The position numbers were made by a program, and so were the translations under genes. Below, piece by piece: positions 1 through 31,537 of a stretch of DNA of 32,000 bases. The notes under the pieces are model-generated. The model saw only the letters and a list, made by a program, of their open reading frames with translations. It did no database searches and was not told the origin of the DNA. Numbering within the stretch: position 1 is the stretch's first letter; each line of letters begins with the position of its first letter. The stretch lies in assembly GCF_000020025.1 (NCBI RefSeq), contig NC_010628.1, positions 5,580,001-5,612,000 of the forward strand. The letters are read 5' to 3'. This DNA comes from Nostoc punctiforme PCC 73102. GTDB lineage: Bacteria; Cyanobacteriota; Cyanobacteriia; Cyanobacteriales; Nostocaceae.

Positions 1-830
1 TTCAAGAACGGTTGCGAAAAGATGCTAATGAAGAAATTAGCAGTTTGCAAAAACGATTAGATGAAATTGAAAGTAAAATTGATGAATTAAATCGAGAACA
101 GGGTGCAAATCAGCAGCAAATTGCTCAACTCACAACTGAAATTGAAGGTTTAAACAAACAAATCGCCAAACAAAAGCTGAATGAAGACAAGCAAACTTTA
201 GCACAGCGACGAATTAACGCCACTCAAGATGCAATCGAACGGTTAACGGAAGTTAGAAATCGTCAAGAACAACAATTTCGTCTGCAACTAGAAAAGCGAG
301 TGCAGGAGATATTCACAGAGATTTCTGTTACTCCATACATTCCTAAAATTAGTGATAAATATGAACTGACATTAGTAGAAAATACTACAGGTGTGGAAGC
401 ACCAGTTGCAGCATCTACTGGGGAAAATCAGATTCTCAGCTTATCCTTTATTGCCAGCATCATTGACAAAGTGCGGGAATGGAGTGAGAAGCGAAAAATG
501 ATGATGATTCCCGATAGTAGTACTTTTCCAATTGTGATGGATTCGCCGTTTGGTAGTTTAGATGAGAATTCGCGGCGACATATAGCAAAGACAATTCCCC
601 AATTAGCGAATCAGTTGATAGTTTTAGTTACTAAGACTCAGTGGCGCGGTGAAGTGGAAGCAGAAATAACAGACAGAATTGGGAGAGAATATGTGCTTAC
701 GTATTATTCTTCTAAACCGGATTGTGAACAAGATTATATTGAGTTGAGTGGAGAAAGATATCCTTTGGTGAAACAAAGTCCGAATGAGTTTGAGTATACA
801 GAAATTATGGAAGTTGAACGAGATAGGTAA
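1..830 (+). CDS. DndD-like SMC/ABC-type ATPase, C-terminal part (5' end upstream of window)
   Basis: The frame is open back to position 3 (QERLRKD...), so the gene is cut by the window edge. A coiled-coil stretch (LQKRLDEIESKIDELNREQ...) is followed by signature-like STGENQILSLSF, Walker-B/D-loop FPIVMDSPFGSLDE and QLIVLVTKTQ. This is the same order as LSAGEKQLLAIAF / PVAIDTPLGRLD / QVILLSTDTE in the DndD at 8823-10808. Confidence 0.75.
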   Translation, partial: QERLRKDANEEISSLQKRLDEIESKIDELNREQGANQQQIAQLTTEIEGLNKQIAKQKLNEDKQTLAQRRINATQDAIERLTEVRNRQEQQFRLQLEKRVQEIFTEISVTPYIPKISDKYELTLVENTTGVEAPVAASTGENQILSLSFIASIIDKVREWSEKRKMMMIPDSSTFPIVMDSPFGSLDENSRRHIAKTIPQLANQLIVLVTKTQWRGEVEAEITDRIGREYVLTYYSSKPDCEQDYIELSGERYPLVKQSPNEFEYTEIMEVERDR

Positions 831-922
831 TTACAGCAGTTTTGATGTCTTTGACCCACATCTGTCATAAGGAAGTAGGCGAAAATATTTTTACAGGAAT
901 GATACAAAATACTTCTCAAATT

Positions 923-957
923 CTTATTCTCCGTGTTCTCTGTGCCTCTGTGGTTTT
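923..957 (-). repeat. Short dispersed repeat (SDR), family aaccgcagaggcgcagaggacgcggag, inverted copy
   Basis: The reverse complement (aaaaccacagaggcacagagaacacggagaataa) aligns at roughly 80% with the copies at 1332-1367 and 10809-10851. Confidence 0.7.
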
Positions 958-1031
958 ATTTTCCGTTACCTGTACATAAATCTGATTTTAGTTACAGTTG
1001 AGAAAATTGGCTTTTGAAAAGGAATAAGATT

Positions 1032-1370
1032 ATGGTTGCGAGTCCAGACAGAAACTATATGTCCCCCCAGGAATATCTGGAATGGGAAGAACGCCAAGAA
1101 ATTAAATATGAATATATTGATGGTGAAGTTTTCGCCATGACTGGGGAGACTTTGCAAGAATACGTCCTCATCGATGCTGAAAAAATTGGTTTAGATTGTT
1201 TTCGGTTAAATGATAGAGGACTTTGGGAGTTACATCCTTATGAGGAAGGGGATGAGGTTCATTTAACTAGTGCTGATTTTCACTTTCCTATTTCTTTGGT
1301 TTATGAGGATGTTCAGTTTGTAGGAAAAACGAACCGCAGAGGCGCAGAGGACGCGGAGAGAAGAGAGTAA
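1032..1370 (+). pseudogene. Uma2 (DUF820) family endonuclease remnant with internal deletion
   Basis: The Uma2 N-terminal block (SPQEYLEWEERQEIKYEYIDGEVFAMTG) joins directly to the family's C-terminal block (LQEYVLIDAEK...WELHPYEEGDEVHLTSADFHFPISLVYEDV). The central part, present in the full-length neighbour and expected to hold the nuclease core, is missing. The 3' end reads through an SDR (NRRGAEDAERRE). Confidence 0.6.
1332..1367 (+). repeat. Short dispersed repeat (SDR), direct copy
   Basis: The sequence aaccgcagaggcgcagaggacgcggagagaagagag matches the inverted copy at 923-957. Together the two bracket the Uma2 remnant. Confidence 0.7.
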
Positions 1371-1406
1371 AATTGAGATTATTACTAACTCATTAAAAGA
1401 TATTTT

Positions 1407-1958
1407 ATGAGTATTAAAACTGAAGCGACTATTGAAGATTTGTACCAATTACCAGACAATTGTAAAGCAGAGATTGTCAATGGGAAATTGGTGCTGATGT
1501 CTCCAACTGGATTTTTACCAGGACGTGCAGGTGGTGAAATTTATGCAAGTCTACGGGATTATAAACGATTGACAAAAAGTGGTTATGCTTTACCTGATAA
1601 TGTTGGTTTCATTGTCAATCTCCCTCATCATCGTTCTTTAAGTCCTGATGCGGCATTTTATACCGGCAAACCTACAGGTGGGAAGTTCCTTAATGGTGCG
1701 CCTGTGTTTGCTGCTGAGGTGAGAAGTGAAAATGATTATGGTGAGACAGCAGAGAAAGATATGGCTAGCAAACGCCGTGATTATTTTGCAGCTGGTACTT
1801 TGGTCGTTTGGGATGTGGATGTACTCAAAGAGGAAGTTATCAGAGTATACCGCGCTAGTAATCCCGAAGAAGCACAAGTGTATCGCCGTGGTGAGGTAGT
1901 GGAAGCTGAACCTGCGTTACCAGGATGGACTATGTTGGTGGATAATTTGTTTGTTTAG
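1407..1958 (+). CDS. Uma2 (DUF820) family putative endonuclease
   Basis: A 183-aa ORF with typical Uma2 layout: N-terminal TIEDLYQLPDNCKAEIVNGKLVLMSP, a central SPDAAF...APVFAAEVRSEND segment (PD...E.xS type core), and a C-terminal KRRDYFAAGTLVVWDVD block. Confidence 0.85.
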   Translation: MSIKTEATIEDLYQLPDNCKAEIVNGKLVLMSPTGFLPGRAGGEIYASLRDYKRLTKSGYALPDNVGFIVNLPHHRSLSPDAAFYTGKPTGGKFLNGAPVFAAEVRSENDYGETAEKDMASKRRDYFAAGTLVVWDVDVLKEEVIRVYRASNPEEAQVYRRGEVVEAEPALPGWTMLVDNLFV

Positions 1959-1967
1959 TGTTTGTTT

Positions 1968-2073
1968 AGCGATCGCCCACATACTATCATTAAATCATAC
2001 CTTTACAATTGCGTAAACGTAGCGATCGCCCACATACTATCATTAAATCATACCTTGGCAATTGCGTAAACGT
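1968..2073 (+). repeat. Tandem duplication, 2 x 53 bp, each unit starting with a HIP1 site
   Basis: The unit agcgatcgcccacatactatcattaaatcatacctt[ta/gg]caattgcgtaaacgt occurs at 1968-2020 and 2021-2073. The copies are 51/53 identical and differ only as TTTACA versus TTGGCA. Confidence 0.9.
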
Positions 2074-2126
2074 AGGCATAGCTTTTCGCTGTCGGTTAAG
2101 ATGGCAAAAATGTAAATATTAATATC

Positions 2127-2585
2127 ATGGCTGCAAATAGAATCAGGGTTGCTAAAGATAAGGCTGAGTTAGTGAAATCTCTAGTAGCATCAAAAGACAC
2201 AACTGGGCCTTTTCAAACTTATGTAGAAGTAATGGTGTTTGCAGCAGCCTTAGGCGTTAAATATAAAAAGCGCATTCCTTTAGACGTAATTTCTAAAGAT
2301 TTATCCCCACTGCGACAAGATTATTTTACTAGCAGCTTCACTCTGTTGATTAATTTGTTAGCTATCACTGAAACAGAAAACATTAAGATTTTAGACGATG
2401 ATAATGTTGCTGATGAGCAACGTATTCACATTTTTGAAGAGTATGCTAACGGTGGTTTAGGAATTATACAAAATGAACTACGCGGAGCAGTAGACTATTC
2501 AGAGAGAATACTATTAATTTTAATTTCTAAAAGATTTGATGATAGTTCAATAGAAGAAGAGTTTGATTTAACTAAATTACTCTAA
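2127..2585 (+). CDS. Small (152 aa) dnd-neighbourhood protein, function unknown; possible distant DndE-like fold
   Basis: ATG-started ORF and first gene of a tightly spaced three-gene operon. By eye it parallels DndE, with NRIRVAKDKAELVKSL versus ERIKLSQTAKDQLTKL and IFEEYANGGLGII versus LHLHRGIGYL. From memory, a curated family called 'DNA phosphorothioation-associated protein 4' lies next to DGQHR proteins. Membership is not verifiable here. Confidence 0.7.
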   Translation: MAANRIRVAKDKAELVKSLVASKDTTGPFQTYVEVMVFAAALGVKYKKRIPLDVISKDLSPLRQDYFTSSFTLLINLLAITETENIKILDDDNVADEQRIHIFEEYANGGLGIIQNELRGAVDYSERILLILISKRFDDSSIEEEFDLTKLL

Positions 2586-2619
2586 CATTTAAACATTTGC
2601 TAAGTTGTAACTACGATAA

Positions 2620-3651
2620 ATGTATCATACAATGATTGGAGAATATGCGGTGACAAATTATATTCAACTACCTGCATGGGAAATTAATCATCCTGGGGGT
2701 AAATTTTATACGTTTATATGTGATACCGAAACTTTGCTACGAATTGCCTATGTCTCTATGGAAGAAAGGAATAAGACGGGTGTTCAGAGACCATTAAGTG
2801 AGAGAAGATGTAAAGAAGTTGCTAAATTTATTAATTCTATTGATGCTGTTATTGCAAATAATATAATCCTCAATTTGCCAGAAGAGACAGAGTATATTCC
2901 TCCTAATACTGAAAGTTTAACTGGTATACTTAAATTCCCAGATAGAGAAAATTCGGCTTGGGTCGTTGATGGTCAGCATAGACTGTTTGGATTTAATTAT
3001 ACTGAAAAAAGACTGAATCTTCTATGCACAGGATTCATAAATATAGGCATAGAAAGCCAAGCCAAAATATTTATTACTATTAACAATGAGCAAAAGGGAA
3101 TTAATCCATCGGTTATTTATGATTTATTACCCTTAATTAAGGATGCTGATTTTAAAGAAAAACGAACACATAGTTTAGTGAAACAGCTAAATCAAGATCC
3201 TGAGTCTCCTTGGTATAATGAAATAAAGATGTTAGGTATTGGGAAGGGATTGGTTTCTCAAGCTGCATTTGCAAGAAATATTGAAATACTTATTGATTCT
3301 AATGGAGGTGTTTTATCACCTTATAATGAAAATCTACAATATGCCATATTAGTTAATTATTTTAATGCTTTTAAAGCGGTTTTTTCTGAAGAATGGGGCA
3401 GTAGTAAATACGTTTTAACAAAAGCAGTTGGTCTATCTGCAATGTGTGGAATTTTTCCCAAGGTTCATAGCCTATGTAGTAAAGATTTTACTGTTGAAAA
3501 TATAATAAAACAAATTTTCAATCTCCAGAAATTTGATTTTAGTAGTGCCAATTTAGGTAAAAGTACAAACAAGGTTGCGATTCAAAAGATTACGGCTGAT
3601 TTAAACAAAATGCTTCCTGAAATCTCAGATACATCTGATATCAAAATATAG
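2620..3651 (+). CDS. DGQHR domain protein (DndB paralogue, ParB-like fold)
   Basis: Carries the VVDGQHRLFGF motif, with an upstream GVQRPLSERRCKEVAKFI block and a downstream FITINNEQKGINPS block. It lies 34 bp after the preceding gene. Confidence 0.85.
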   Translation: MYHTMIGEYAVTNYIQLPAWEINHPGGKFYTFICDTETLLRIAYVSMEERNKTGVQRPLSERRCKEVAKFINSIDAVIANNIILNLPEETEYIPPNTESLTGILKFPDRENSAWVVDGQHRLFGFNYTEKRLNLLCTGFINIGIESQAKIFITINNEQKGINPSVIYDLLPLIKDADFKEKRTHSLVKQLNQDPESPWYNEIKMLGIGKGLVSQAAFARNIEILIDSNGGVLSPYNENLQYAILVNYFNAFKAVFSEEWGSSKYVLTKAVGLSAMCGIFPKVHSLCSKDFTVENIIKQIFNLQKFDFSSANLGKSTNKVAIQKITADLNKMLPEISDTSDIKI

Positions 3652-3670
3652 GAGATGTAGAATTAATTCA

Positions 3671-4621
3671 ATGCTCAACGATATTAGTACTACATTTAAT
3701 AAAAAAACTAGGCCAGGATTGAGTGATAGAAATTTTGATGTTCCTCTTTTAAAAGCTATAATTTATGATCAAATCAAGATTTATAATAGGCAATATTGTA
3801 TTAAAGTATATTTAAAAGATAAAATCACAAAATATGATGGATCAGACAAAGTATACAGTTTTGTAGATCAAGAATTAAAATCAGTTTTGCTGAATGAAGC
3901 AAACCTTCAATTTAGTAAAGCTCTTTATAATTGGTCAATATATAAAAAATTAGTTTCTAAAGGTCTGTGGTCATGGGCTTGTGTTACTTTATATTATGCA
4001 CAATTTTATTGTATTAATGGATTGCTTAATATTCAAGGTAATGCATTCTCTAGACCTAAACTTTTAACAAATATTGGCAAAGAAAAAGAGACAGTATTTC
4101 ATGTATATACTGAAGATTTTGCAGCAGGTAAATTCATTTTTGAAATGAGAAACTACAAACCTCATGAAGATGTATGGCGACAGTATTATAATGTGTACAA
4201 AAATTATAGATATAAAATATCATCTTACAATGAACTTTACCAATATGACATAGATAACCAGTTTGCTATTTTAGAAATTAGGCATCGTGCCAATTATGAT
4301 ACTGCTTTTTTATTAGAGGATTTTATTGAATATTTACTGCCTACAAACGAGCTTGAAGATTTTGCGCTCAAAATGCAGCCTAATATTTTTGAAACATCTT
4401 GGACAGAAGACGAATTCTTAAAATTAGAATATATTGCTTCCTTAAGAATTAAGTTATTATTTGATATTCTTCACGAGATTTTAGGCATAAGTAGTCATTT
4501 AGAAACTATTAGAAAAGATTTATATTTGGAACGTGCAAGTATGTTAAATAATCTTAAAGATGATACACCAGTTAAGGACTGTTTCCTTAATTGGATCGAT
4601 GAGAATAATATTATTATCTGA
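3671..4621 (+). CDS. Hypothetical 316-aa protein with HEPN/UPF0332-like sequence pattern
   Basis: Starts 19 bp after the DGQHR gene and is very AT-rich. The pattern GLWSWACVTLYYAQFYCINGLLNIQG ... ILEIRHRANYD resembles the HEPN (PF05168/UPF0332) helices YYAxFxxxxALL..G and lRxxa(D/N)Y. This is a by-eye call only. Confidence 0.65.
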   Translation: MLNDISTTFNKKTRPGLSDRNFDVPLLKAIIYDQIKIYNRQYCIKVYLKDKITKYDGSDKVYSFVDQELKSVLLNEANLQFSKALYNWSIYKKLVSKGLWSWACVTLYYAQFYCINGLLNIQGNAFSRPKLLTNIGKEKETVFHVYTEDFAAGKFIFEMRNYKPHEDVWRQYYNVYKNYRYKISSYNELYQYDIDNQFAILEIRHRANYDTAFLLEDFIEYLLPTNELEDFALKMQPNIFETSWTEDEFLKLEYIASLRIKLLFDILHEILGISSHLETIRKDLYLERASMLNNLKDDTPVKDCFLNWIDENNIII

Positions 4622-4752
4622 CAATAAGTTAATTTGAGAAGAGTATTTTAAGTGAACAGTATAGATAAAATTTACACCTCATTTAGCCTCTTTCAACTTG
4701 AGAAGGATGATAACGAGGCATGGTTTAACTATGGACAAGTGACCGCTCGGAA

Positions 4753-6351
4753 TTACAAGACAGTTGGAAGTCCTACTGCTTTCGGTTCAACAAACTTACC
4801 ATCAAAACCTATAGTTTTATCTTCCACAGTCCTAGCATCTGCTAAAGCCTTACGAAGTTCAGCACGTTCCATCTGTTCCTGAATTCCACCCAGGATGTAA
4901 ACCAATAACTTCGCCGCTAAATCTCGCCCAGCAACCTGCACCCGCTTTTTATTTGGGTCATATAAAATCCCATACCAGAGAGATTGGGGATATTCCATAC
5001 CGCTAAAGCCGCCTTGCTGGTCAAACTTCCGTAGCTTCTTAAAAATATCTGCTAGAGAAAAACCTTTTTTAAATACCAAAATTCCCAAAGCTTGCGCTAA
5101 TGCAACTTGAGCAACCGGACGGAAAAGCATATTTCCTTCACCTCCATCCTTCTCAAAACTGAATCGCCGTAAAGCTGGTGTATCCTCGTGTTCTAAAATT
5201 TTATAACTGGAAAGACTAGCCAAATTATCAAATAGCTTGCTAAATTCCTGAATCCCCTGCTCAAGTTCTTCATCCTCTGGACGCATTGGAATTAGACCTT
5301 TCTCCAAGGGTTTCCAGTGGGGGAACTTTTGAGCCAAATATCGCTCAGACATATCTTGCAGAGCTTGCAAAGTCGTCAAAACTGTAGAATTGGAAGCTAC
5401 TGTTGCACTATTCCAATTAACACGAGGTTTGCGTTCTTGTTGCTGTTCTAATAGTGGATGTGTAACTGCAATTTTTCTAGCGACGATCGCAAAACCATCA
5501 TCTTCATTCAACTGTGTTAGTTGCCCTTTAGTCAATGGTGCAGCCATCAGGTTGACATGAACAAAAATCGATCTTACCCTCCGCCTCGCCTGGGTGCGAG
5601 TTTCCCCAGCCGCTACCGCACAGATGAACTCAATACCAATTTTTTCCTTGGGTAAATTTTGCAAGTAAGCAAGGTCTACTTGGTACTTTTCTATCAAATC
5701 ATTGACTGTAATAAAACTGTCATCAACACCTTTATCTTTTTTATAGCGCTGGAGTTTACGAGTTTTGATTAACTCCATCAACCCCTGAACTCCCATCAGT
5801 CGATGTTGTCCATCTAGTGCATAAATGGTTACATCATCCTCAGAAATATTTAGCAGACCTACCTTACCGTCTTTATCTAGGGGTATAAAATCAGTCGTAG
5901 ACTTGGTGGCGCGTCCTTCGCTATCCCACTCAGCAGCTTTGGGATTATCCACCCACGGTTGATTAATCACCACCAGCACCGGCGGGAACTTATGATTGTC
6001 TCTAGCCGCTAAATACTGGACTAGCGGTGCTTGACGTGACCAATCAAGGGGACGCTGCTGAATTTCATCAATACTATCTGCATCAATTTCGACATTATCA
6101 GTTTCAGGATTATACTTTTTCTGAAATAGAGGTAAGCCAGAGGCGAAGTGAACCCGACCTGCAAACCATTCCAATGTAACAGAGCTAACATAAGCCTCAG
6201 TACCACCCATCTCGGTTTTTTGAACGAGAATCTGATCTTTTCTCCCTAAAAACTTCTCTAGGAGTAAAGCTAGTACCTGCTTTTCCTTGTTTTCTCGTTC
6301 CAGGTATTCTCTAGCGATGTCAGCAGTTGGGTCGGATGCACTGTCTTTCAT
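4753..6351 (-). CDS. dndB: DNA sulfur modification protein DndB (DGQHR domain), long 532-aa form
   Basis: Carries the IYALDGQHRLMGVQG motif and the IFVHVNLMAAPLTKGQ block. It is divergently placed next to dndC. Confidence 0.85.
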   Translation of the reverse strand: MKDSASDPTADIAREYLERENKEKQVLALLLEKFLGRKDQILVQKTEMGGTEAYVSSVTLEWFAGRVHFASGLPLFQKKYNPETDNVEIDADSIDEIQQRPLDWSRQAPLVQYLAARDNHKFPPVLVVINQPWVDNPKAAEWDSEGRATKSTTDFIPLDKDGKVGLLNISEDDVTIYALDGQHRLMGVQGLMELIKTRKLQRYKKDKGVDDSFITVNDLIEKYQVDLAYLQNLPKEKIGIEFICAVAAGETRTQARRRVRSIFVHVNLMAAPLTKGQLTQLNEDDGFAIVARKIAVTHPLLEQQQERKPRVNWNSATVASNSTVLTTLQALQDMSERYLAQKFPHWKPLEKGLIPMRPEDEELEQGIQEFSKLFDNLASLSSYKILEHEDTPALRRFSFEKDGGEGNMLFRPVAQVALAQALGILVFKKGFSLADIFKKLRKFDQQGGFSGMEYPQSLWYGILYDPNKKRVQVAGRDLAAKLLVYILGGIQEQMERAELRKALADARTVEDKTIGFDGKFVEPKAVGLPTVL

Positions 6352-6440
6352 GTTAAATTTTAAAAATAGAATAGTATTATGTAGTTCAATTATCCAAAAA
6401 ACTGGATATTAGTAGTAAAGTTTTTAAAAACTGTTTTTTC

Positions 6441-6499
6441 AAACCACGGAGGTGGGTTTTGTCTGTATAGCCGCGAATTCTATTCGCCCTATTCGCCCG
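6441..6499 (-). repeat. REP-like element (two-hairpin unit), inverted orientation, in the dndB-dndC divergent spacer
   Basis: The reverse complement cgggcgaatagggcgaatagaattcgcggctatacagacaaaacccacctccgtggttt matches the copies at 8178-8234, 8251-8305 and 8745-8796. Confidence 0.8.
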
Positions 6500-6533
6500 A
6501 ATATTAAGCCAGTGTTTCCAGAGAGAAGGAGAA

Positions 6534-8159
6534 ATGACTACAGCACAACAAACAGAAAATAAAGGTCAGCAGACACGTACTGTAGCAGAGTTAGTGGAAG
6601 ATATCAAAGCTCTCACTACTGAAATTCAAGAATTGTATTGTTTGGATCAGATACCTTGGGTTTTAGGTGTGTCTTGGGGAAAAGACTCTAGCACAGTATT
6701 GCAGCTTGTGTGGAATGCGATCGCTGCTCTTCCTCCAGAAAAAAGAACTAAAACGGTTTATGTAATTACAACCGATACTCAGGTAGAAAATCCTGTAGTG
6801 TCTGCTTGGGTTCGCAAATCCTTGCAGAATCTCAAGATAGCTGCAAAAGAACAGGGGATGCCAATCGATCCACATTTACTACAACCAGTAATTCAAGACA
6901 CATTTTGGGTAAATCTTATTGGTAAAGGATATCCAGCACCTCGTAACCAGTTTCGCTGGTGTACACCACGTTTAAAAATTAATCCTGCTAATCAATTCAT
7001 CCGTGAAATAGTTAGAGCTAACGGTGAAACAATTCTTGTATTGGGTACTCGCAAAGCAGAAAGCTCAAAACGTGCCGCCACAATGAAAAAGCATCAGGTT
7101 GATAGAGTACGAGATCGCCTGAGTCCTAATGCCAGCTTACCCAACTCCTTAATCTATACCCCTATTGAAGATTGGAGTAATAACGATGTCTGGATATATC
7201 TAAATCAGTGGAATAATCCTTGGGGACAAAGCAATAAAGAATTATTCACGATGTATCGAGGTGCAACAGCTGATAATGAATGTCCACTAGTTGTTGATAC
7301 TTCTACTCCTAGCTGTGGTGATTCCCGATTTGGCTGTTGGGTTTGCACACTAGTGAGTAAAGATAAATCAATGGAAGCAATGATCCAAAATGATGAAGAA
7401 AAAGAATGGATGCAGCCATTATTAGATATCCGTAACGAGCTAGATATTAAAGATGACCGAGACAAAAGAGATTTTAGAAGAATTTGGGGTGAGGTACAAC
7501 TTTTTGAGCGTAACAAAGATGGGAAGATATCTGTTGATCCAATACCTGGGCCTTATACAAAATATTGGCGCGAATATTGGCTTAAACGATTATTAGAAGC
7601 GCAAATAAAAACACGTCGGACAGCGCCAGAAAATATGCGCGACATCACTCTAATTACTCTAGAAGAAATGAGCGAAATTCGCCGCATTTGGCTAGAAGAT
7701 AAACACGAATTTGATGATAGCTTACCCCGGATTTATCAAGAAGTGACTGGAGAAGAATTTCAAGATCCTCGTCCTGGCGCTGACTATAGCCTACTAGGTC
7801 GTGATGAATGGATAGTATTAGAAGAAATCTGTGAAGGTGACGCGATGCACTTGGAACTCATGGCGAAATTGTTAGATACAGAACGCCAGTATCGCAAAAA
7901 GACTCGTCGTGTGGGAATATATGAAACTTTAGAAAAATGCTTTAATACGAGTTCCCGTTCTCCAGAAGATGCGATTAAAAATGCTCGTTTGAAACGCGAA
8001 TTAAGCGAAGCAGTTAGTCAAGGTGACGTTGCAAAAGTCAAGCAGATGACTTTAGGCGATGTTGCAGCAATCAATGAAGTAGATGAAGGTCAAAGTGAAA
8101 GTGATGAAGAGGTAACTTGGGCAAGTATGAAATTTAAAAAGGAAAATTCAGAAGAATAG
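6534..8159 (+). CDS. dndC: DNA phosphorothioation protein DndC (PAPS reductase/PP-loop family)
   Basis: A 541-aa ORF with a PP-loop-like VSWGKDSS motif, the Cys cluster CPLVVDTSTPSCGDSRFGCWVC, and FRWCTPRLKI. Confidence 0.9.
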   Translation: MTTAQQTENKGQQTRTVAELVEDIKALTTEIQELYCLDQIPWVLGVSWGKDSSTVLQLVWNAIAALPPEKRTKTVYVITTDTQVENPVVSAWVRKSLQNLKIAAKEQGMPIDPHLLQPVIQDTFWVNLIGKGYPAPRNQFRWCTPRLKINPANQFIREIVRANGETILVLGTRKAESSKRAATMKKHQVDRVRDRLSPNASLPNSLIYTPIEDWSNNDVWIYLNQWNNPWGQSNKELFTMYRGATADNECPLVVDTSTPSCGDSRFGCWVCTLVSKDKSMEAMIQNDEEKEWMQPLLDIRNELDIKDDRDKRDFRRIWGEVQLFERNKDGKISVDPIPGPYTKYWREYWLKRLLEAQIKTRRTAPENMRDITLITLEEMSEIRRIWLEDKHEFDDSLPRIYQEVTGEEFQDPRPGADYSLLGRDEWIVLEEICEGDAMHLELMAKLLDTERQYRKKTRRVGIYETLEKCFNTSSRSPEDAIKNARLKRELSEAVSQGDVAKVKQMTLGDVAAINEVDEGQSESDEEVTWASMKFKKENSEE

Positions 8160-8177
8160 AAGACCGAGTGAATAAAA

Positions 8178-8234
8178 GACCGGGCGAATGGAATTCGCGG
8201 CTACACAGACGAAACCCACCTCCGTGGGTTGAAG
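8178..8234 (+). repeat. REP-like element copy A
   Basis: The sequence is gaccgggcgaatggaattcgcggctacacagacgaaacccacctccgtgggttgaag. It has two hairpins: gcgaat/attcgc and aacccac/gtgggtt. Confidence 0.8.
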
Positions 8235-8250
8235 ACAAATAAGTTTAATT

Positions 8251-8305
8251 CCCGGCGATTGGAAATCGTGGCTACACAGACGAAACCCGCCTGTGCGGGT
8301 TAAAG
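8251..8305 (+). repeat. REP-like element copy B
   Basis: The sequence cccggcgattggaaatcgtggctacacagacgaaacccgcctgtgcgggttaaag has the same architecture as copy A. It sits immediately 5' of the RAYT ORF. Confidence 0.8.
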
Positions 8306-8308
8306 AAA

Positions 8309-8722
8309 ATGAGAGCAAATTTTACGCAATTGTATCTACATTATGTTTGGGCGACATAGGATAGATTACCCTTAATTACGCCTGATATTCAAAAGGAAGT
8401 TTACGGCGCAATTATCCGCGAATCTGAGGAGTTAAAATGTACCATCATTGCAATTGGTGGGATTGAAGATCATGTGCATTTCCTGACAGGTTTTCCATCA
8501 ACCATCAGTGTCTCTGAATGGGTTAAACAAATTAAGGGAAGTTCTTCGCATTTCATCACCCACGAAATCAAACCGGGTGAGTTTTTCAAATGGCAAGGTA
8601 GCTACGCAGCATTTACAGTTAGTCATGATGCCATCGACAGTGTAGCCAATTACATCAGAAACCAACCCACCCACCATAGCCAAAAATCAATCATTCCCAC
8701 CTGGGAACTGACTCCCAAGTAA
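8309..8722 (+). pseudogene. REP-associated tyrosine transposase (RAYT, IS200/IS605 TnpA-like) with one in-frame TAG
   Basis: Translation gives MRANFTQLYLHYVWAT*DRLPLITPD...GIEDHVHFL (HUH motif)...WQGSYAAFTVS (Tyr motif). The stop at 8357-8359 splits an otherwise intact reading frame. REP copies flank it in inverted orientation. Confidence 0.8.
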
Positions 8723-8744
8723 ATGAACAACTATGTATGAATTT

Positions 8745-8796
8745 AGTCCGCGGAGGCGGACTTTGCCTGTGTAGCTGCGAATTCCATTCGCCCGGT
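8745..8796 (-). repeat. REP-like element copy C (inverted)
   Basis: The reverse complement accgggcgaatggaattcgcagctacacaggcaaagtccgcctccgcggact matches copy A. Confidence 0.8.
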
Positions 8797-8822
8797 ATCT
8801 TATAAACCTTGCTTAAAAACTA

Positions 8823-10808
8823 ATGATATTTCTTGAACTCGTTCTACAAAACTTTGGCCCGTATAGCGGAAAACAAGTAATCAACCTTAACCCAAAAATT
8901 GATGAGGAAACCTCACACCCAATTATTCTCTTAGGTGGGATGAATGGCGGCGGAAAAACTACCCTTATGGATGCCATTCGTCTCGCTCTTTATGGCGCTC
9001 GTGCCCAATGTTCTACCCGTGGTAATTTAAGTTATAGCGATTTTCTCAACCAATGTGTTAACAACAAAATTGATCCAGTTGCAGACACCCGGATTGAATT
9101 ACTTTTTGAACATATTGAAAACGATAAACCAATAAAATACCGTGTTGTGCGTAGTTGGACAAAAAATCCTAAAGATGGTAAAGATACATTAGGTATTTTA
9201 GGTGACAGTGATACATGGCCCGATGCTTTAGTTAATATCTGGGATGAATATATTGAAAATCTCCTGCCATTAGGAATTTCTAACTTATTTCTCTTTGATG
9301 GTGAACAAGTTAAAGAACTCGCAGAACAGGAAACACCACCACCAGTTGTAGTAGACGCAATTCGCGGACTTTTAGGTTTAGAGTTAGCAGATCGTTTAGC
9401 AGTTGATTTAGATATCTTAGTTAACCGTAAACTGAAAGAAGTTGGTAATAGTAAAGATTTAGCAAACCTAGAAGAAATTGAAACTAGGTTAACCCAACAG
9501 CAAGAAGATTATCAAACAACAGGAGAAAAATTAGAAACTCTCAAAAATCAGGTAGAAGAGTTAGAACAAAAGCAGCAAGAAGCCTTTGATAAATTCATTT
9601 CTGAAGGTGGGAAGATTGCTGCAGAACGCAATCAGCTAGAACTACAACAGGATACAAAAACTGCGGAAATTGAACAAGTACGTCAGTCAATGTGTGAATT
9701 GGCGGCTGATGTTTTACCTTTGGCATTAATTCCCAATTTGCTTAATCAGGTGCAGACACAGGGCGAAAAAGAATTTCGCCATCAACAGGTACAAATCTCC
9801 AAGGATTTGTTACTTAAACGAGATCAGCGCTTACTCGCTTGGCTAAATCAAGTAGAAATTTCTCCGATACAAGTTGAAAAAATCCAATCATTTTTAATCC
9901 AAGATGTAGATAGTTTATATGCAAAGACTATCCAGATAGAAGCAGCTTGGCTATTAGCCGATGATGAAAGTTTAAGTCAGCTAGATAACCTTATATATCA
10001 TTTACAAAATTCTAAAATTTCTGCAAAAGAGAAATTAGCTATTCTCAAAAATAAAGGAGAAGAAATTCATACTTTAGAAAGACAAGTGCAAACAGCAGCA
10101 GCACCAGAAGATTATACAAAGCTGCGTCAAGCATTAGAAACGGCACAAAATCAAGTTGTTGAAGCTAAAGCAAATTATGAAACAATCCGCCGCCGTTTAG
10201 CTGAATTAGAAACTGTTATTGCTAAGTCAAAGAGAGAATTAAGTGATTATACCGTAGAAAATATTAAACATAAAAATAGCGAACATATTATTACCTCAGC
10301 AGCGAAAGTTCAAGAAACACTCAAGACTTTTCGGGAAAAATTAACTCTGCGAAAACTCAATAAATTAGAGGAGGAAGTTAAAAATTGCTTCCTTTATCTC
10401 CTGCACAAATCAGATTTAGTGCATCGTATCACTATTGATACCAAGACCTTTAGCCTTTTGCTTTATGATTTAAATGGTAAACCTGTACCTAAACATCGCC
10501 TCTCTGCTGGGGAAAAACAACTACTTGCGATCGCATTCCTTTGGGGTTTAGCCAAAGTCTCTGGACACCGCCTACCAGTAGCAATCGATACGCCACTAGG
10601 TAGACTAGACTCCTCTCACCGCAGTAATTTAGTTGAACGTTACTTTCCATCCGCCAGTCACCAAGTAATTTTGCTATCTACGGATACGGAGATTGGCAAG
10701 AAAGAAGTGGAAACACTGCGAGAAAATGAAGCGATCGCCCGTGAATATCTGCTCAAATATGACTCTACCACCCGCCAAACTACCATACAACCAGGATATT
10801 TTTGGTAA
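8823..10808 (+). CDS. dndD: DNA sulfur modification protein DndD (SMC-like ATPase)
   Basis: N-terminal MIFLELVLQNFGPYSG, Walker A GGMNGGGKTT, a long coiled coil, the signature LSAGEKQLLAIAF, and Walker B PVAIDTPLGRLD. Confidence 0.9.
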   Translation: MIFLELVLQNFGPYSGKQVINLNPKIDEETSHPIILLGGMNGGGKTTLMDAIRLALYGARAQCSTRGNLSYSDFLNQCVNNKIDPVADTRIELLFEHIENDKPIKYRVVRSWTKNPKDGKDTLGILGDSDTWPDALVNIWDEYIENLLPLGISNLFLFDGEQVKELAEQETPPPVVVDAIRGLLGLELADRLAVDLDILVNRKLKEVGNSKDLANLEEIETRLTQQQEDYQTTGEKLETLKNQVEELEQKQQEAFDKFISEGGKIAAERNQLELQQDTKTAEIEQVRQSMCELAADVLPLALIPNLLNQVQTQGEKEFRHQQVQISKDLLLKRDQRLLAWLNQVEISPIQVEKIQSFLIQDVDSLYAKTIQIEAAWLLADDESLSQLDNLIYHLQNSKISAKEKLAILKNKGEEIHTLERQVQTAAAPEDYTKLRQALETAQNQVVEAKANYETIRRRLAELETVIAKSKRELSDYTVENIKHKNSEHIITSAAKVQETLKTFREKLTLRKLNKLEEEVKNCFLYLLHKSDLVHRITIDTKTFSLLLYDLNGKPVPKHRLSAGEKQLLAIAFLWGLAKVSGHRLPVAIDTPLGRLDSSHRSNLVERYFPSASHQVILLSTDTEIGKKEVETLRENEAIAREYLLKYDSTTRQTTIQPGYFW

Positions 10809-10851
10809 CTCCCTCCTCTTTTCTCTGTCTCCTCTGTACCTCTGCGGTTCG
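10809..10851 (-). repeat. Short dispersed repeat (SDR) filling the dndD-dndE spacer
   Basis: The reverse complement aacgaaccgcagaggtacagaggagacagagaaaagaggagggag aligns with the copy at 1332-1367. Confidence 0.7.
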
Positions 10852-10865
10852 TTAATCAAAAACTT

Positions 10866-11252
10866 ATGGAATCACCAATAGAAAGAATTAAACTCTCCCA
10901 AACAGCCAAAGATCAACTTACCAAACTTAAGCGCAGCACTAAAATCGACCAATGGAATATTTTATGCCGTTGGGCGTTTTGTCGTTCCCTCGCGGAAGCA
11001 ACCACACCTTCCCCCGTCCCAATTCCCCAGGATAGCAACGTCGAAATGAGTTGGCGCGTTTTTGGTGGCGAAATGTCTGATATACTCCTTCTCGCCCTCA
11101 AGCAACGCTGTCACAATGACGGCTATCCCACCGACAAAGAAACCCTCGCCACCCAGTTCCGCCTGCATTTGCATCGCGGTATTGGCTATTTAGCAGGCGA
11201 TCCAAATATCAAGAAAATTGAAGATTTAATTGAACTAGCGGTTAAAAATTGA
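10866..11252 (+). CDS. dndE: DNA sulfur modification protein DndE
   Basis: A 128-aa ORF directly after dndD. RIKLSQTAKDQLTKLKRSTKIDQWNILCRWAFCRSL is typical of the DndE N-terminus. Confidence 0.8.
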   Translation: MESPIERIKLSQTAKDQLTKLKRSTKIDQWNILCRWAFCRSLAEATTPSPVPIPQDSNVEMSWRVFGGEMSDILLLALKQRCHNDGYPTDKETLATQFRLHLHRGIGYLAGDPNIKKIEDLIELAVKN

Positions 11253-11256
11253 AAGG

Positions 11257-11316
11257 ATATTAGTTGACTGTTAACTGTTCACTGTTCACTGTTCACTGTT
11301 AACTGACAACTAATAT
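11257..11316 (+). repeat. STRR-like heptamer array (ACTGTTC/ACTGTTA) enclosed in a 19-bp imperfect inverted repeat
   Basis: The arms atattagttgactgttaac (11257-11275) and gttaactgacaactaatat (11298-11316) pair at 17 of 19 positions. The loop holds tgttcac heptamers. The element ends 1 nt before the ATG at 11318. Confidence 0.85.
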
Positions 11317-11317
11317 T

Positions 11318-12775
11318 ATGCCTGAAGCGCTAGAAATTGAGCGTCATAGAGCTGCGATCGCTCGCATTGATATATCTCGCCCTGTACGATTGGCTATAGA
11401 AGGGTCAATCCTCAATCAAGACACCACTTTTTTTGACTACGGTTGCGGCTACGGTGGTGATGTGCAGCGAGTAAAAAACTTAGGCTACACCAGTGCAGGC
11501 TGGGACCCTTACTACTATCCTGATGTGCCACGCACCCCCGCCGATGTAGTCAATCTAGGTTACGTCCTCAACGTTATTGAAGACTCAGAAGAACGCCGTC
11601 AAAGCCTGATCCAAGCCTGGGAACTCACTGGGAAAGTTTTAATTGTCGCGGCTCAAATACTGATTAACGCTCCCAGCAAAACCCAGTTTGCTTACAATGA
11701 TGGCATTGTGACGCGCCGCAATACTTTTCAGAAATATTACGAACAACAAGAACTCAAAACTTATATTGATGAAGTCTTAAATGTAGATGCAGTACCGATC
11801 GCACTAGGCGTTTACTTTGTTTTTCGAGATGAAGCTGAAAAAGAAAGCTACAAAGCTATCCGCTTCTTTTCTGTGACTTCTACACCGCGAGTTCGCATTC
11901 CCACCAAGCGGTTTGAAGACTATCAAGAACAGCTGCAACCCTTAATGGCTTTTTTTACCAAGCGCGGTAGACTACCTGTGAAAGGCGAATTGGAAAATGA
12001 ACAGGAATTACTGAGCGAATTTGGTAACTTCCGCCGCGCCTTTGGTGTAGTTTTGCAAGCTACTGATGAGGCTGAATGGGATGCGATCGCTTATCGTCGT
12101 TCTCTTGATATCCAAGTTTATCTCGCCCTGACTCACTTTGATAAACGTCCTGCATGGCAAAAGTTAGCGCCAGAAATGCGTCACGATATCAAAGCCTTTT
12201 TTAGTAGTTATGAAGAAGCTTGTCAAGTAGCCGATCAAAAGCTTTTCAGCTTAGGCAAACCTGGGGTGATTCAAAATGCTTGTGAAAAAAGCAAAATTGG
12301 TAAACATACGCGTGGTGCGCTTTACGTCCATGTTTCCGCACTAGCAGCACTTGACCCAGTACTACGAATTTGTGAAGGTTGCGCTAGCCGTACTATTGGA
12401 CGTGTCGATGAAGCCACATTAATTAAATATCACACCGATAAGCCGCAAATCTCCTATCTGTCTTACCCCGAATTCGATACCGATCCTCATCCCGCGTTAA
12501 AAGCCAGCATCGGTATTGATTTAAAAACCTTATTTGTCACTCATCGAGACTACGAAACTAGAGCAAATCCGCCGATTTTGCACCGTAAGGAAACATTTGT
12601 TACCAGCAACTACCCACGCTACGAAGAATTTGCTAAACTCACCCAACAAGAACAGCAATTAGGATTACTCAATAGCAAAAGCGACATTGGTACGCGTGAA
12701 GGTTGGGAAAAATGCCTTGCTGCACACAGAGTAGAGATCAGGGGGCATCAAGTTTATTCCATTAAGGAAAATTAA
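11318..12775 (+). CDS. dnd-associated putative SAM-dependent methyltransferase
   Basis: Contains methyltransferase motif I (FFDYGCGYGGDV), then NLGYVLNVIED, then a long C-terminal region of about 300 aa with no motif I recognise. Position after dndE fits the curated family of DNA phosphorothioation-associated putative methyltransferases (TIGR04096, recalled from memory). Confidence 0.75.
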   Translation: MPEALEIERHRAAIARIDISRPVRLAIEGSILNQDTTFFDYGCGYGGDVQRVKNLGYTSAGWDPYYYPDVPRTPADVVNLGYVLNVIEDSEERRQSLIQAWELTGKVLIVAAQILINAPSKTQFAYNDGIVTRRNTFQKYYEQQELKTYIDEVLNVDAVPIALGVYFVFRDEAEKESYKAIRFFSVTSTPRVRIPTKRFEDYQEQLQPLMAFFTKRGRLPVKGELENEQELLSEFGNFRRAFGVVLQATDEAEWDAIAYRRSLDIQVYLALTHFDKRPAWQKLAPEMRHDIKAFFSSYEEACQVADQKLFSLGKPGVIQNACEKSKIGKHTRGALYVHVSALAALDPVLRICEGCASRTIGRVDEATLIKYHTDKPQISYLSYPEFDTDPHPALKASIGIDLKTLFVTHRDYETRANPPILHRKETFVTSNYPRYEEFAKLTQQEQQLGLLNSKSDIGTREGWEKCLAAHRVEIRGHQVYSIKEN

Positions 12776-18484: not shown

Positions 18485-18740
18485 AACGGTAGAAACTATG
18501 ACACAATTTTCTTACTTTAGACTTGAGATTTAATAATTGTCGCCAGTCTAAAGTCCGATTTTGCTTACTTAGTCACTCCATTAAGGTACTGGAAAAATAA
18601 TTTACTCTCCAATTCGCAATGCCCAATATTCATACATATAAGACTCATATTTGATTCTTGAAAAAATTCAGTATAGCTCAAAGAGCCTTCTTGCCTATTG
18701 CCTATTGACTGTTGCCTGCCTATGCAAATAATTTCAAAAA

Positions 18741-19961
18741 TCAAATCAGATTACGATATAAGCATTTGTTAGTCAATAAAAAACTTTCAAACTCTGCTGC
18801 TGGTAATGGAGGACTAAATAGAAAACCTTGCATAGAATTACAGTTTTGTTGGCGCAAAAAAGCAAGTTCTGCTTCGGTCTCTACCCCTTCAGCGATTACA
18901 TTTAGATTGAGATTGTGACCCATTTGAATTAATGCTTTAGTAATGGCTGATTTCTGTGTATCGTTAGCAACATTATGGATAAAATAACGGTCAATTTTTA
19001 AGGTGTTAATTGGTAAGTTTTTCAGATAAATTAGAGAAGAATAGCCTGTACCAAAATCATCGATCGCAATTTTGATACCCAATGATTGCAATTTGCTCAT
19101 AGTAGCGATCGCACTATTTACGTCTTGCATAATCATACTTTCAGTTAGTTCTAGCTCTAAGTCATCTGGTTGCACATTATTAATAGTTATAAAATTGACT
19201 ATTTTATTAATAAAATCTGGTTGGTTAAATTCAATTGCTGATAAATTTACAGTAACAACCAAGGAATTAATTCCGGTATCACGCCAGATTTTTATTTGCT
19301 TACATACACTTTTTAATACCGATTTACCGATTGGAACAATTAAACCTGTAGACTCTGCTAACGGAATAAATTCTGTTGGGTAAACTATCCCCAATTCTGG
19401 GCTTTGCCAGCGCAATAAACTTTCAGCAGCTACTATTTTCCCAGAAGCAATATCGACTATTGGTTGATAATAAATTTCAAATTCCTGAAATTTATGTTGT
19501 TTAATAGCTCGGTGCAAGCAAATTTCTAACAACTGCATTTTGGGAGACAAGTTGTTAATTCTAGTCTGAGTAGATAAATATTTTTTTAAAGTAGCGTATT
19601 TTTCCAACCGATTCATGATGGCACTTAATAACTCAGCCCGACTAAATGGCTTAGTTATATAGTCATCGGCCCCCATATCCATACCTTGACGGAAGTCAGA
19701 TTTGGCAGATTTGGCGGTGAGAAAAATGAAGGGAATTGTTGCCGTTGAAGGATCTTGGCGTAACGCTGTTAGAACACCATAACCATCAATTTCTGGCATC
19801 ATCATATCACAGAGAATTAAGTCAGGAACTTCACAGATAGCCAAATGTACACCAATCCTACCATTAGCGGCAGCAATAGTTTCAAAATCCTCAGCTTCTA
19901 GCAAATCTAAAATGTTTTCACGGACTGCTTCCTCGTCTTCTATTATTAAAATTTTGGGCAT
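18741..19961 (-). CDS. Response regulator with EAL (c-di-GMP phosphodiesterase) output
   Basis: The REC domain shows ILIIEDEE...DLILCDMMMPEIDG...FLTAK. The EAL domain shows YYQPIV, AAESLLRW, DDFGTGYSSL, KIDRYF, AEGVET and QGFLFSPP. Confidence 0.85.
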   Translation of the reverse strand: MPKILIIEDEEAVRENILDLLEAEDFETIAAANGRIGVHLAICEVPDLILCDMMMPEIDGYGVLTALRQDPSTATIPFIFLTAKSAKSDFRQGMDMGADDYITKPFSRAELLSAIMNRLEKYATLKKYLSTQTRINNLSPKMQLLEICLHRAIKQHKFQEFEIYYQPIVDIASGKIVAAESLLRWQSPELGIVYPTEFIPLAESTGLIVPIGKSVLKSVCKQIKIWRDTGINSLVVTVNLSAIEFNQPDFINKIVNFITINNVQPDDLELELTESMIMQDVNSAIATMSKLQSLGIKIAIDDFGTGYSSLIYLKNLPINTLKIDRYFIHNVANDTQKSAITKALIQMGHNLNLNVIAEGVETEAELAFLRQQNCNSMQGFLFSPPLPAAEFESFLLTNKCLYRNLI

Positions 19962-30789: not shown

Positions 30790-31537
30790 TAGTTGCAGTA
30801 AATTTACTAATTTTTCATTTCAAACGTATTATTATTGACCCACGTATATTTACTGGAGTTTTTGAAAAAAATATTTGAACTTTATTAAATTATTCCCAAT
30901 ACTTTACAAGTAATTGTGGTGTCTACTTGTAAAACAACCTTAATTTGCTGGTATTAAATAGTTTTTATACTTAAGTAATATTCTTAATTAGTCATTTTTA
31001 CATCAGTCTAAAGTTAGATATGTTGATGGATTGCTATAAGCGTTTTGCTTAATTCATTATTTATTAATAATATCTTAATACTTTTAAGTATTAACACTAT
31101 GTTTGCTGAATCAATATTTCAAAATATATAAAAACATACTTATTTTCTTGTATAGTTATGTTTTTCTTTTAGTAAAGATATATAAAGTTAAAATAAAGAA
31201 ATTGTTATTTTATAAGGATTTCAAAAACTATTAAACTAGAAGCTCAGTAATAATCCTATATAGTAAAAGTATATTTTTGTAGGTAAAAATAAATACAAAA
31301 AAATTATTTTTATAATTAATTCTGATGATTAATTCCTTTTTCACCTATCTTCTTAGTTTTAGTCATCAGGTCAAAAAGCCTTGCAAAGTCTCCATCTTGA
31401 TTAAAAAACTACCTCTATGGATATAGGAAATGCTTTTTCAAGATAGTACCTTAGACATATTTAAAGTTCATACTCCTAATTGGCGGTAAAATTTTTTACT
31501 ATAGGTAGAAAAATCTGGAGACTTGGCTCTTAACTAA
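30790..31537. other. ORF-free, extremely AT-rich ~750-bp intergenic region upstream of the small-peptide gene
   Basis: The track shows no ORF of 60 aa or more on either strand. The region contains a perfect 12-bp palindrome agtaaatttact (30797-30808) and a 10-bp IR tttacaagta/tacttgtaaa (30903-30912 / 30924-30933). Confidence 0.8.

Follow-up and report, generated by a model that had tools for sequence, protein, structure and literature searches.

What is the AT-rich block of three genes that lies next to the dnd genes in the phosphorothioation (PT) locus of Nostoc punctiforme PCC 73102, and does it form one functional unit? The window analyzed here comprises 32,000 nucleotides of this genome (NC_010628.1, positions 5,580,001 to 5,612,000 of the forward strand). 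The block consists of Npun_F4487-89 (ACC82854-56), encoding proteins of 152, 343 and 316 amino acids (aa), which we call p1, p2 and p3. A reading made from the letters alone (the sequence-only reading) had described them as three open reading frames (ORFs) on the same strand, separated by gaps of 34 and 19 bp and converging on the minus-strand dndB, and the ORF list agrees with this arrangement. It had further proposed that the trio is an uncharacterized PT-linked effector module. This proposal is plausible for the p2-p3 pair, since the same site holds nuclease and effector genes in sister genomes; for the trio it does not stand. We favor, with moderate confidence, a composite block: p1 belongs to the PbeABCD system, and p2 and p3 form an accessory cassette of a sensor and an RNase-type effector that occupies a variable slot.

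Evolutionary units within the block

p1 matched TIGR04062 ('DNA phosphorothioation-associated protein 4') with 201 bits at a cut-off of 74.25, covering profile positions 1-151 of 151. The TIGR04062/PF27807 family comprises more than 1,207 clusters, and PF27807 is precomputed on every listed homolog. TIGR04062 and TIGR04095 were defined together by Haft's group as strictly phosphorothioation-dependent families (PMC3226654), and pbeABCD, including the 152-aa pbeD of H. jeotgali, was found to be needed for PT-dependent antiviral defense (Xiong et al. 2019, PMC6459918). In the genomic locus that adds 10 kb upstream of the window (L001; other loci are numbered likewise) the gene order is a 453-aa superfamily 2 (SF2) helicase, a 57-aa ORF, a 690-aa ATPase, two Uma2 genes and p1. 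The helicase, PbeA, reached 667 bits on TIGR04095 ('DNA phosphorothioation system restriction enzyme', cut-off 600). PbeB, assigned by position and size only, is the 57-aa ORF overlapping the start of pbeC, and ORFs of 54–57 aa occupy the corresponding position in L007, L011 and L094. In the 690-aa PbeC, residues 338-340 form a CIC motif that falls at the midpoint of the chain (335-341 across loci); it is conserved in N. punctiforme, L007, L011 and L094 and absent from DndD. Judged by its sequence, the motif is the putative zinc hook that defines the CxC ABC ATPases (PMC10853773). On the grounds of position, size, family definition and literature, p1 takes the PbeD position, so that the pbeABCD set is complete, and the earlier statement that none of the three proteins maps to a known system is wrong.

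The PbeA protein of N. punctiforme (453 aa, L001 4852-6213) is devoid of the N-terminal PLD/HKD nuclease domain, and the domain was detected in 0 of 80 Nostocales loci (L013-L092). The Pbe system of Nostocales is therefore without a built-in nuclease. In L007, L011 and L094 PbeA measures 704–705 aa and the PLD/HKD domain is present.

These 80 Nostocales loci, each with a p1 homolog found by genome scan, were surveyed with the window proteins by tblastn. p1 is accompanied by PbeA in 63, PbeB in 66, PbeC in 68, DndB in 70, DndC in 70 and DndD in 71 loci, and it follows PbeC in 68. p2 and p3 accompany it in two only, HT-58-2 and Tolypothrix tenuis. Comparison of the window with L014, L017, L056, L022 and L061 by blastn showed that homology stops at 2578-2583 and restarts at 4751-4765. 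The homologous stretch upstream of the gap spans 2073-2583, and the breakpoints coincide with the stop codons of p1 and dndB. The variable unit is therefore about 2584-4750 and contains p2 and p3 only. The three genes are thus neither one evolutionary unit, as had been assumed, nor co-conserved: apart from the 2/80 count, 4 of 11 contexts of the p2-p3 pair have neither p1 nor dnd genes.

In other genomes the slot between pbeD and dndB holds different genes. A 313-aa HNH protein is present in 33 of the 80 loci; it scored 127 bits on NF045808 ('phosphorothioated DNA-binding restriction endonuclease'), below the cut-off. A 396-aa DndB paralog (PF14072, 309 bits) occupies the slot in 17/80, a 665-aa DGQHR protein together with a 227-aa GIY-YIG-like protein in 13/80 plus three partial cases, and p2-p3 in 2/80. 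Slot coordinates are 10463-11787 in L014, 10463-13276 in L017 and 10472-11444 in L056. Among the 80 Nostocales genomes, no fewer than four types of cargo alternate at the pbeD-dndB site, which is a hotspot. Seven more loci have slot gaps of 355–1913 bp that contain none of the four cargos.

The sequence of p1 follows the cargo. Its identity to the window copy is 65–69% in the HNH class and 76–90% in the other cargo classes. PbeC and DndB are about 97% identical in most Nostoc loci (95–98% for dndB), and p1 is more divergent than these neighbors. In L014 and L056 the N-terminus of p1 is identical to that of the window copy and divergence sets in from the middle of the protein on. Recombination breakpoints inside pbeD are one possible explanation, co-adaptation of PbeD and the cargo is the other.

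The DGQHR protein and its candidate HEPN-like partner

Homologs of p2 and p3 are adjacent in 11 out of 11 contexts, 3–19 bp apart except for an annotated overlap in L094. In seven of these contexts the pair immediately follows pbeA-B-C-D and has dnd genes as neighbors. These are N. punctiforme, HT-58-2, T. tenuis and the metagenomic loci L007/8, L011, L094 and L095, in which p2 or p3 is only 47–65% identical to the window copy. The other four have no dnd or pbe genes, and defense islands of Bacillus are among them. In B. subtilis the standalone pair (WP_048655083 and its DGQHR neighbor) sits between rlmH-like and FBPase genes; in L006 it is found near Dcm-type methylase, HATPase_c_3 and Mrr-helicase genes; in Bacillus sp. 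UMB0899 (L096, with L009 being the same island) near GmrSD_N, Eco57I-type and Mrr_cat genes; in L097 the partner is 38% identical (E 6e-62). PT is therefore not an obligatory signal for the pair. The match lists of p2 and p3 contain contigs of matching lengths. Even a distant relative of p3 with 26% identity has, 7 bp upstream of it, an ORF whose product can be aligned to the C-terminus of p2 (E 1e-8). The pair has a G+C content of 29–35% in every host, about 3–15 points below its flanks. p2 and p3 are a separate, tightly coupled two-gene cassette, which is strongly but not obligatorily associated with Pbe/dnd loci.

The cassette is also very rare. Among 5.8e9 proteins the p3 family counts 22 clusters, a profile search of 1.84e9 representatives found 113 relatives, and the close p2 subfamily counts about 25 clusters. 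No p3 or pair was found in phage, plasmid and viral-contig collections, a metagenome scan returned one short locus only, and a search of literature and supplements for the locus tags and accessions gave nothing.

p2 scored 219.9 bits on the DGQHR model TIGR03187 (cut-off 58.85), which supports the DGQHR motif that had been read in VVDGQHRLFGF. Scores on more specific models stay below the equivalog cut-offs (130 versus 450 bits for DGQHR_dnd_1, TIGR04172; 111.9 versus 300 for DpdB, NF041060), TIGR03233, the model of DndB proper, did not match, and PADLOC returned DpdB models only, at 119 bits. Similarity to the 532-aa DndB of the window is restricted to 35 aa around the motif (E 2e-5), in agreement with the earlier view that p2 is a paralog of DndB and not a second DndB. 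Across 20 homologs with identities down to 25%, the residues Q56-R57, D117-G-Q-H-R121 and F151...N155 are invariant. A QR pair, the DGQHR pentapeptide and FxxxN have been described as the signature motifs of DGQHR proteins (PMC4619093).

A DGQHR relative 43–44% identical to p2 occurs in L010 (6947-9850) with different partners: the upstream protein has 343 aa and the downstream one 232 aa. Neither matches Pfam, the 343-aa partner is not homologous to p3, and genes for a radical-SAM protein and an SF2 helicase lie next to them. DGQHR proteins apparently change partners.

p3 has no match in NCBIfam, PADLOC (even at E <= 10) or PHROG, in keeping with the sequence-only reading, which had called it an unknown partner. 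p1 likewise had no PADLOC match even at E <= 10. The trio as a whole had no PHROG match and, apart from the DpdB models matched by p2, no PADLOC or NCBIfam match to DndFGH, SspE, SspFGH or other catalogued systems. The AlphaFold2 (AF2) model of p3 is of high confidence (predicted local distance difference test, pLDDT, 91.8; predicted template modeling score, pTM, 0.92) and shows long helices at 68-95 and 100-121, a beta insert at 125-159 and further helices. A Foldseek search gave a single meaningful partial match, the HEPN protein AF0298 (2hsb), with a probability of 0.97 and a template modeling (TM) score of 0.67 when normalized to the target; nothing was found at E <= 0.001 in PDB or among the viral structures of BFVD. 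Across 63 of the 113 p3 relatives, with about 20% identity, W102, Y108, H165, R204 and Y209 are invariant and N208 is nearly so. In this set HEPN is the only recurring Pfam family, with weak matches below threshold in 6 of 63 members (best E 0.005).

Helix 199-209 ends in the motif R204-[N/H]-x-x-N-Y209, and the invariant H165 immediately follows the stretch inserted between helices 2 and 3; close family members also have E158-x-R160-x4-H165. In HEPN proteins of the AbiV/AF0298 type the His of the Rx4-6H motif is lost, the Arg is kept and followed by a polar residue, and an alternative conserved His comes from an insert between helices 2 and 3, the motif being located at the end of helix 3 (PMC3710099). 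From its residues and its model, an assignment of p3 to this type is consistent but unproven, and weak by every formal measure. Other candidates were rejected. A derivation of p3 from a C-terminal half split off the 665-aa DGQHR cargo protein, DndB or the neighbor in L010 is contradicted by hhalign probabilities of 0.06–0.25%, and the only match to solved structures by sequence, FliE (E 0.023), is spurious.

Composition and neighboring features

The G+C content is 33.6% for p1, 31.8% for p2 and 27.5% for p3, compared with a value of 40.6% over the entire window. At 29.7% (z = -3.76) the p2-p3 span lies below the lowest of 520 equally long, non-overlapping windows, which has 35.0%, so the atypical composition noted earlier holds for the cassette. 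Two conclusions that had been drawn alongside it fail. The HIP1 octamer is indeed absent from the block; with 28 sites per 32 kb, 2.2 would be expected and the probability of finding none is 0.11. The site-free gap extends from 2030 to 6716 and includes dndB, and further gaps of 3.8 and 3.7 kb exist, for example across dndC-dndD. The depletion is therefore not meaningful, and we rejected it as a sign of foreign origin. The second conclusion was that the block is a later insertion beside an ameliorated dnd cluster. In HT-58-2 homology is unbroken across p1-p2-p3-dndB, with 81% nucleotide identity compared with 80% in the flanks (blastn), and T. tenuis has the same arrangement with 81.3% nucleotide identity across p1-p3. 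As the cassette has diverged as much as its flanks, it is old in that lineage despite its composition, and a recent insertion was rejected. Other AT-rich stretches of the window, at 31001-31500 (23% G+C) and 18501-19500 (about 33% G+C), are far from the block.

Table 1. Features of the window from the 3' end of pbeC to the dnd genes, in window coordinates.
Feature	Position	Strand	Basis or remark
3' end of pbeC, CxC-type ABC ATPase	12..830	+	start upstream of window; PADLOC PbeC PDLC02753, 436.7 bits, E 3.4e-131
Uma2-family gene fragment, pbeC-pbeD junction	1014..1370	+	Pfam Uma2 E 1.9e-11, two short stretches only
Uma2-family gene, pbeC-pbeD junction	1407..1958	+	Pfam Uma2 92.4 bits, full profile
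p1, 152 aa, PbeD-position gene	2127..2585	+	TIGR04062 / PF27807; pbe backbone, outside cassette
Exchangeable cargo slot, pbeD stop to dndB stop; here with p2-p3 cassette	2584..4750		blastn breakpoints
p2, 343 aa, DGQHR-domain protein, ParB/Srx superfamily, DndB-like	2620..3651	+	TIGR03187
p3, 316 aa, unclassified alpha+beta protein, candidate HEPN-like core of AbiV/AF0298 type	3671..4621	+	fold match, invariant residues
dndB, 532 aa, divergent from dndCDE	4753..6351	-	TIGR03187 205 bits; Pfam DndB; stop codon is right slot boundary
dndC, IS200-like fragment, dndD, dndE, putative dnd-associated methyltransferase	6534..12775	+	ORFs; DndE TIGR03184 142 bits; TIGR04096 712.6 bits

The junction between pbeC and pbeD is itself variable. 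The p1 homolog is separated from pbeC by 1 bp in L007, overlaps it by 8 nt in L011 and also abuts or overlaps it in L095, and none of these three loci has an insertion. Because of this contact (L007/L008, L011, L095), the Uma2 genes of N. punctiforme represent an insertion. Among the 80 related loci the Uma2 fragment is present in 19 and the full gene in 34. In L094 a DUF2887 gene is located at the same junction (4620-5489). The junction is tolerant of selfish cyanobacterial gene insertions, and the first Uma2 copy is degenerate. Between the Uma2 genes and p1, a sequence of about 53 bp (TAGCGATCGCCCACATACTATCATTAAATCATACCTT..CAATTGCGTAAACG) occurs in two tandem copies at 1966-2071 with one HIP1 site per copy. 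The repeat stops just short of 2073, where homology to other Nostoc loci resumes.

On the other side of the slot, the products of dndC and dndD in L001 have Pfam matches to PAPS_reduct and SMC_N/AAA_23. An 82-aa ORF in the gap between dndC and dndD (8474-8722) is a C-terminal piece of an IS200-like Y1 transposase (Pfam Y1_Tnp, E 3e-11) and thus the remnant of an insertion within the dnd operon. The resident DndB is unusually long, and since the DGQHR-domain model matches two separate stretches, its sequence suggests a large insertion inside this domain. An Rfam search of 800-6600 found no family, a hairpin search of the intergenic regions found none, and no terminator-like site was detected inside the block or in the convergent spacer of p3 and dndB. 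The promoter scan showed an excess of promoter-like sites in the block, as expected for AT-rich DNA, and is uninformative.

Possible role of the pair and relation to known systems

How might the pair act? In the composite account p2, as a ParB-like DGQHR protein, would bind DNA and probably a nucleotide and serve as sensor or regulator. p3, with its HEPN-like core, R204 and the alternative H165, would act as the effector by cleaving nucleic acid, most probably RNA. The pair may provide an accessory or back-up layer of the abortive-infection type beside Pbe/Dnd in cyanobacteria and act autonomously elsewhere, presumably without PT as an obligatory requirement.

Several observations weigh against this account. 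The Foldseek match of p3 to 2hsb has an E value of 0.53, the score of p3 on Pfam HEPN is 16.6 bits and remains below the gathering threshold of 22, and the canonical Rx4-6H motif is not found in the p3 superfamily, the His being replaced by Tyr (R204-x4-Y209). The sample of contexts for the pair is small (n=11) and rich in cyanobacteria, and the pair is not included in PADLOC. On the side of p1, the re-annotation of CxC ABC ATPases and PbeABCD by the Aravind lab in 2024 claimed that PbeD is a homolog of DndE (PMC10853773), and we could not reproduce this for p1. Its AF2 model is weak (pLDDT 67), and DndE (4lrv) appeared at rank 40 with E 8.3 and a TM score of 0.41, which is not significant. 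Comparison with 52 DndE sequences by hhalign gave a probability of 1.3%, from alignments that are shallow and of very low diversity. The p1 profile matched no PDB sequence.

A more far-reaching proposal can be made tentatively. The DGQHR and HEPN-like pair would be an uncatalogued anti-phage system that is self-sufficient without PT, as in Bacillus, and the pbeD-dndB site would be a socket for swappable effectors in Nostocales. Since none of the 80 Nostocales PbeA proteins has a PLD/HKD domain, the slot cargo may supply the nuclease. The cargos (HNH, GIY-YIG-like with DGQHR, HEPN-like with DGQHR) would thus replace the lost nuclease arm of PbeA, and PbeD would dock the effector with its C-terminal part, so that this part and the cargo would vary together.

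The main rival, which we judge to be rather doubtful, assumes a split module resembling SspE or GmrSD: p2 would read PT or another DNA modification and license p3 to cut invader nucleic acid, in Nostocales replacing the nuclease of the HKD-less PbeA (PLD/HKD absent in 80/80 loci). In its favor, 7 of 11 contexts put the pair right after pbeD and beside dnd genes, and it agrees with a slot HNH protein resembling NF045808 in 33/80 genomes and with the relatedness of DGQHR and DUF262 DGQQR domains (PMC4619093). However, PT cannot be an obligatory signal, as four contexts are without dnd or pbe genes, and the PbeA of L007, L011 and L094 keeps its PLD domain although the pair is present. Moreover, p3 appears HEPN-like, a fold that is usually found in RNases, and is not a DUF1524 or HNH protein.

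If the cassette were instead a selfish addiction element of the toxin-antitoxin type, with p3 as toxin and p2 as its neutralizer, defense islands and the pbeD-dndB hotspot would be permissive landing sites and a dedicated role in PT would not exist. We consider this improbable. The recurrence of the pair after pbeD in divergent loci (47–65% identity), its absence from plasmid, phage and viral-contig collections and the size of p2, which with 343 aa is large for an antitoxin and has invariant, enzyme-like DGQHR motifs, all argue against it. Features in its favor are nevertheless seen: two tightly coupled genes, a constantly low G+C content (29–35%) whatever the host, a small number of clusters scattered in patches over Cyanobacteria, Bacillus and further lineages known from metagenomes, and a standalone copy between housekeeping genes in B. 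subtilis. HEPN toxins are also common in toxin-antitoxin systems (PMC3710099).

A regulatory module seems very improbable. Here p2 would be a DndB-like transcriptional regulator of the neighboring dnd or pbe genes and p3 a non-catalytic helical partner, in line with the report of DndB as a negative transcriptional regulator (PMC4507180; PMC10853773), with the second DndB paralog that is slot cargo in 17/80 and with the missing canonical HEPN His of p3. The standalone Bacillus pair, however, has no dnd genes to regulate, and the retention of His, Arg, Asn and Tyr in p3 at about 20% identity suggests catalysis or specific ligand binding. Least probable, and largely refuted, is a single uncharacterized PT-reading or effector module p1-p2-p3 inserted as a block next to dndBCDE: same strand, short gaps, the p1-p2-p3 order in 7 loci, the somewhat AT-rich p1 (33.6% G+C) and its tracking of the cargo class are compatible with it, but p1 is a TIGR04062 protein always placed after PbeC, 78/80 p1 genomes have neither p2 nor p3, the homology breakpoints leave p1 outside the cassette and p2-p3 occurs without p1 in four contexts.

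Returning to the composite account, its first consequence is a corrected parsing of the locus: the trio begins with a gene of PbeABCD, for which experimental antiviral evidence exists, and only the last two genes are uncharted. These form a very rare two-gene cassette that is missing from the catalogues of defense systems. The Nostocales present a natural experiment: a common pbeABCD-dndBCDE backbone, with a PbeA that lacks the nuclease domain, is combined with at least four different cargos at exactly the same position, and this variation makes the puzzle of how Pbe stops phage without obvious DNA cleavage more approachable. The conceptual advance is modest because the themes of ParB with HEPN and of nucleases at Dnd boundaries have already been published.

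Compared with the described PbeABCD system, the locus shares the TIGR04095 helicase, the 57-aa protein, the 690-aa ATPase with CxC hook, a fourth gene of 152 aa, the length of H. jeotgali PbeD, and the adjoining dndBCDE. It differs in that pbeC and pbeD of N. punctiforme are split by two Uma2 genes, that the PbeA of Nostocales has no HKD/PLD domain and that p2 and p3 are outside the described system. The best named relatives of p2 are DpdB, the DGQHR ATPase of the 7-deazaguanine Dpd system, and TIGR04172, at 112–130 bits; these scores are far under the cut-offs of 300 and 450, and no dpd genes are nearby. With SspE, GmrSD and BrxU, which combine a DUF262 NTPase with a DUF1524 nuclease, the similarity is one of logic only, a ParB-like sensor with a nuclease effector; SspE is PT-linked, and GmrS and GmrD can be separate. 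p2 carries DGQHR instead of DGQQR, p3 appears HEPN-like and not a His-Me finger protein, and p3 and DUF1524 show no homology.

Regarding p3, the AbiV/AF0298 proteins (PDB 2hsb) resemble it, by sequence and secondary structure, in that the Arg of the motif is kept with a polar residue behind it, the motif His is missing and another conserved His is supplied from the region inserted between helices 2 and 3. In contrast to them, p3 has 316 aa, extra helical regions at the N- and C-terminus and a beta insert of 35 residues, and sequence similarity is not significant. Fusions or linkages of ParB-like proteins (DGQHR/COG1479/DUF262) with HNH, PD-(D/E)xK or HEPN nucleases have been published (Makarova 2013, PMC3632139; Anantharaman 2013, PMC3710099). 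As in the ParB and HEPN fusions and operons of the MAE_28990, RiboL-PSP-HEPN and Saro_3948 types, a protein of the ParB superfamily would here be coupled to a HEPN-type domain in neighborhoods of defense and DNA modification. The pair differs from these by two separate genes, a very small family and a p3 that lies outside their Pfam HEPN families, with its beta-sheet insert, Rx4Y and alternative His. The Aravind lab has described nucleases of the HEPN, PIN and URI types that lie at the edges of Dnd/CxC loci and has proposed that they serve as back-up suicide effectors (PMC10853773). On our analysis, p2-p3 would fit this frame of a back-up nuclease at the boundary as a new, uncatalogued family pair.

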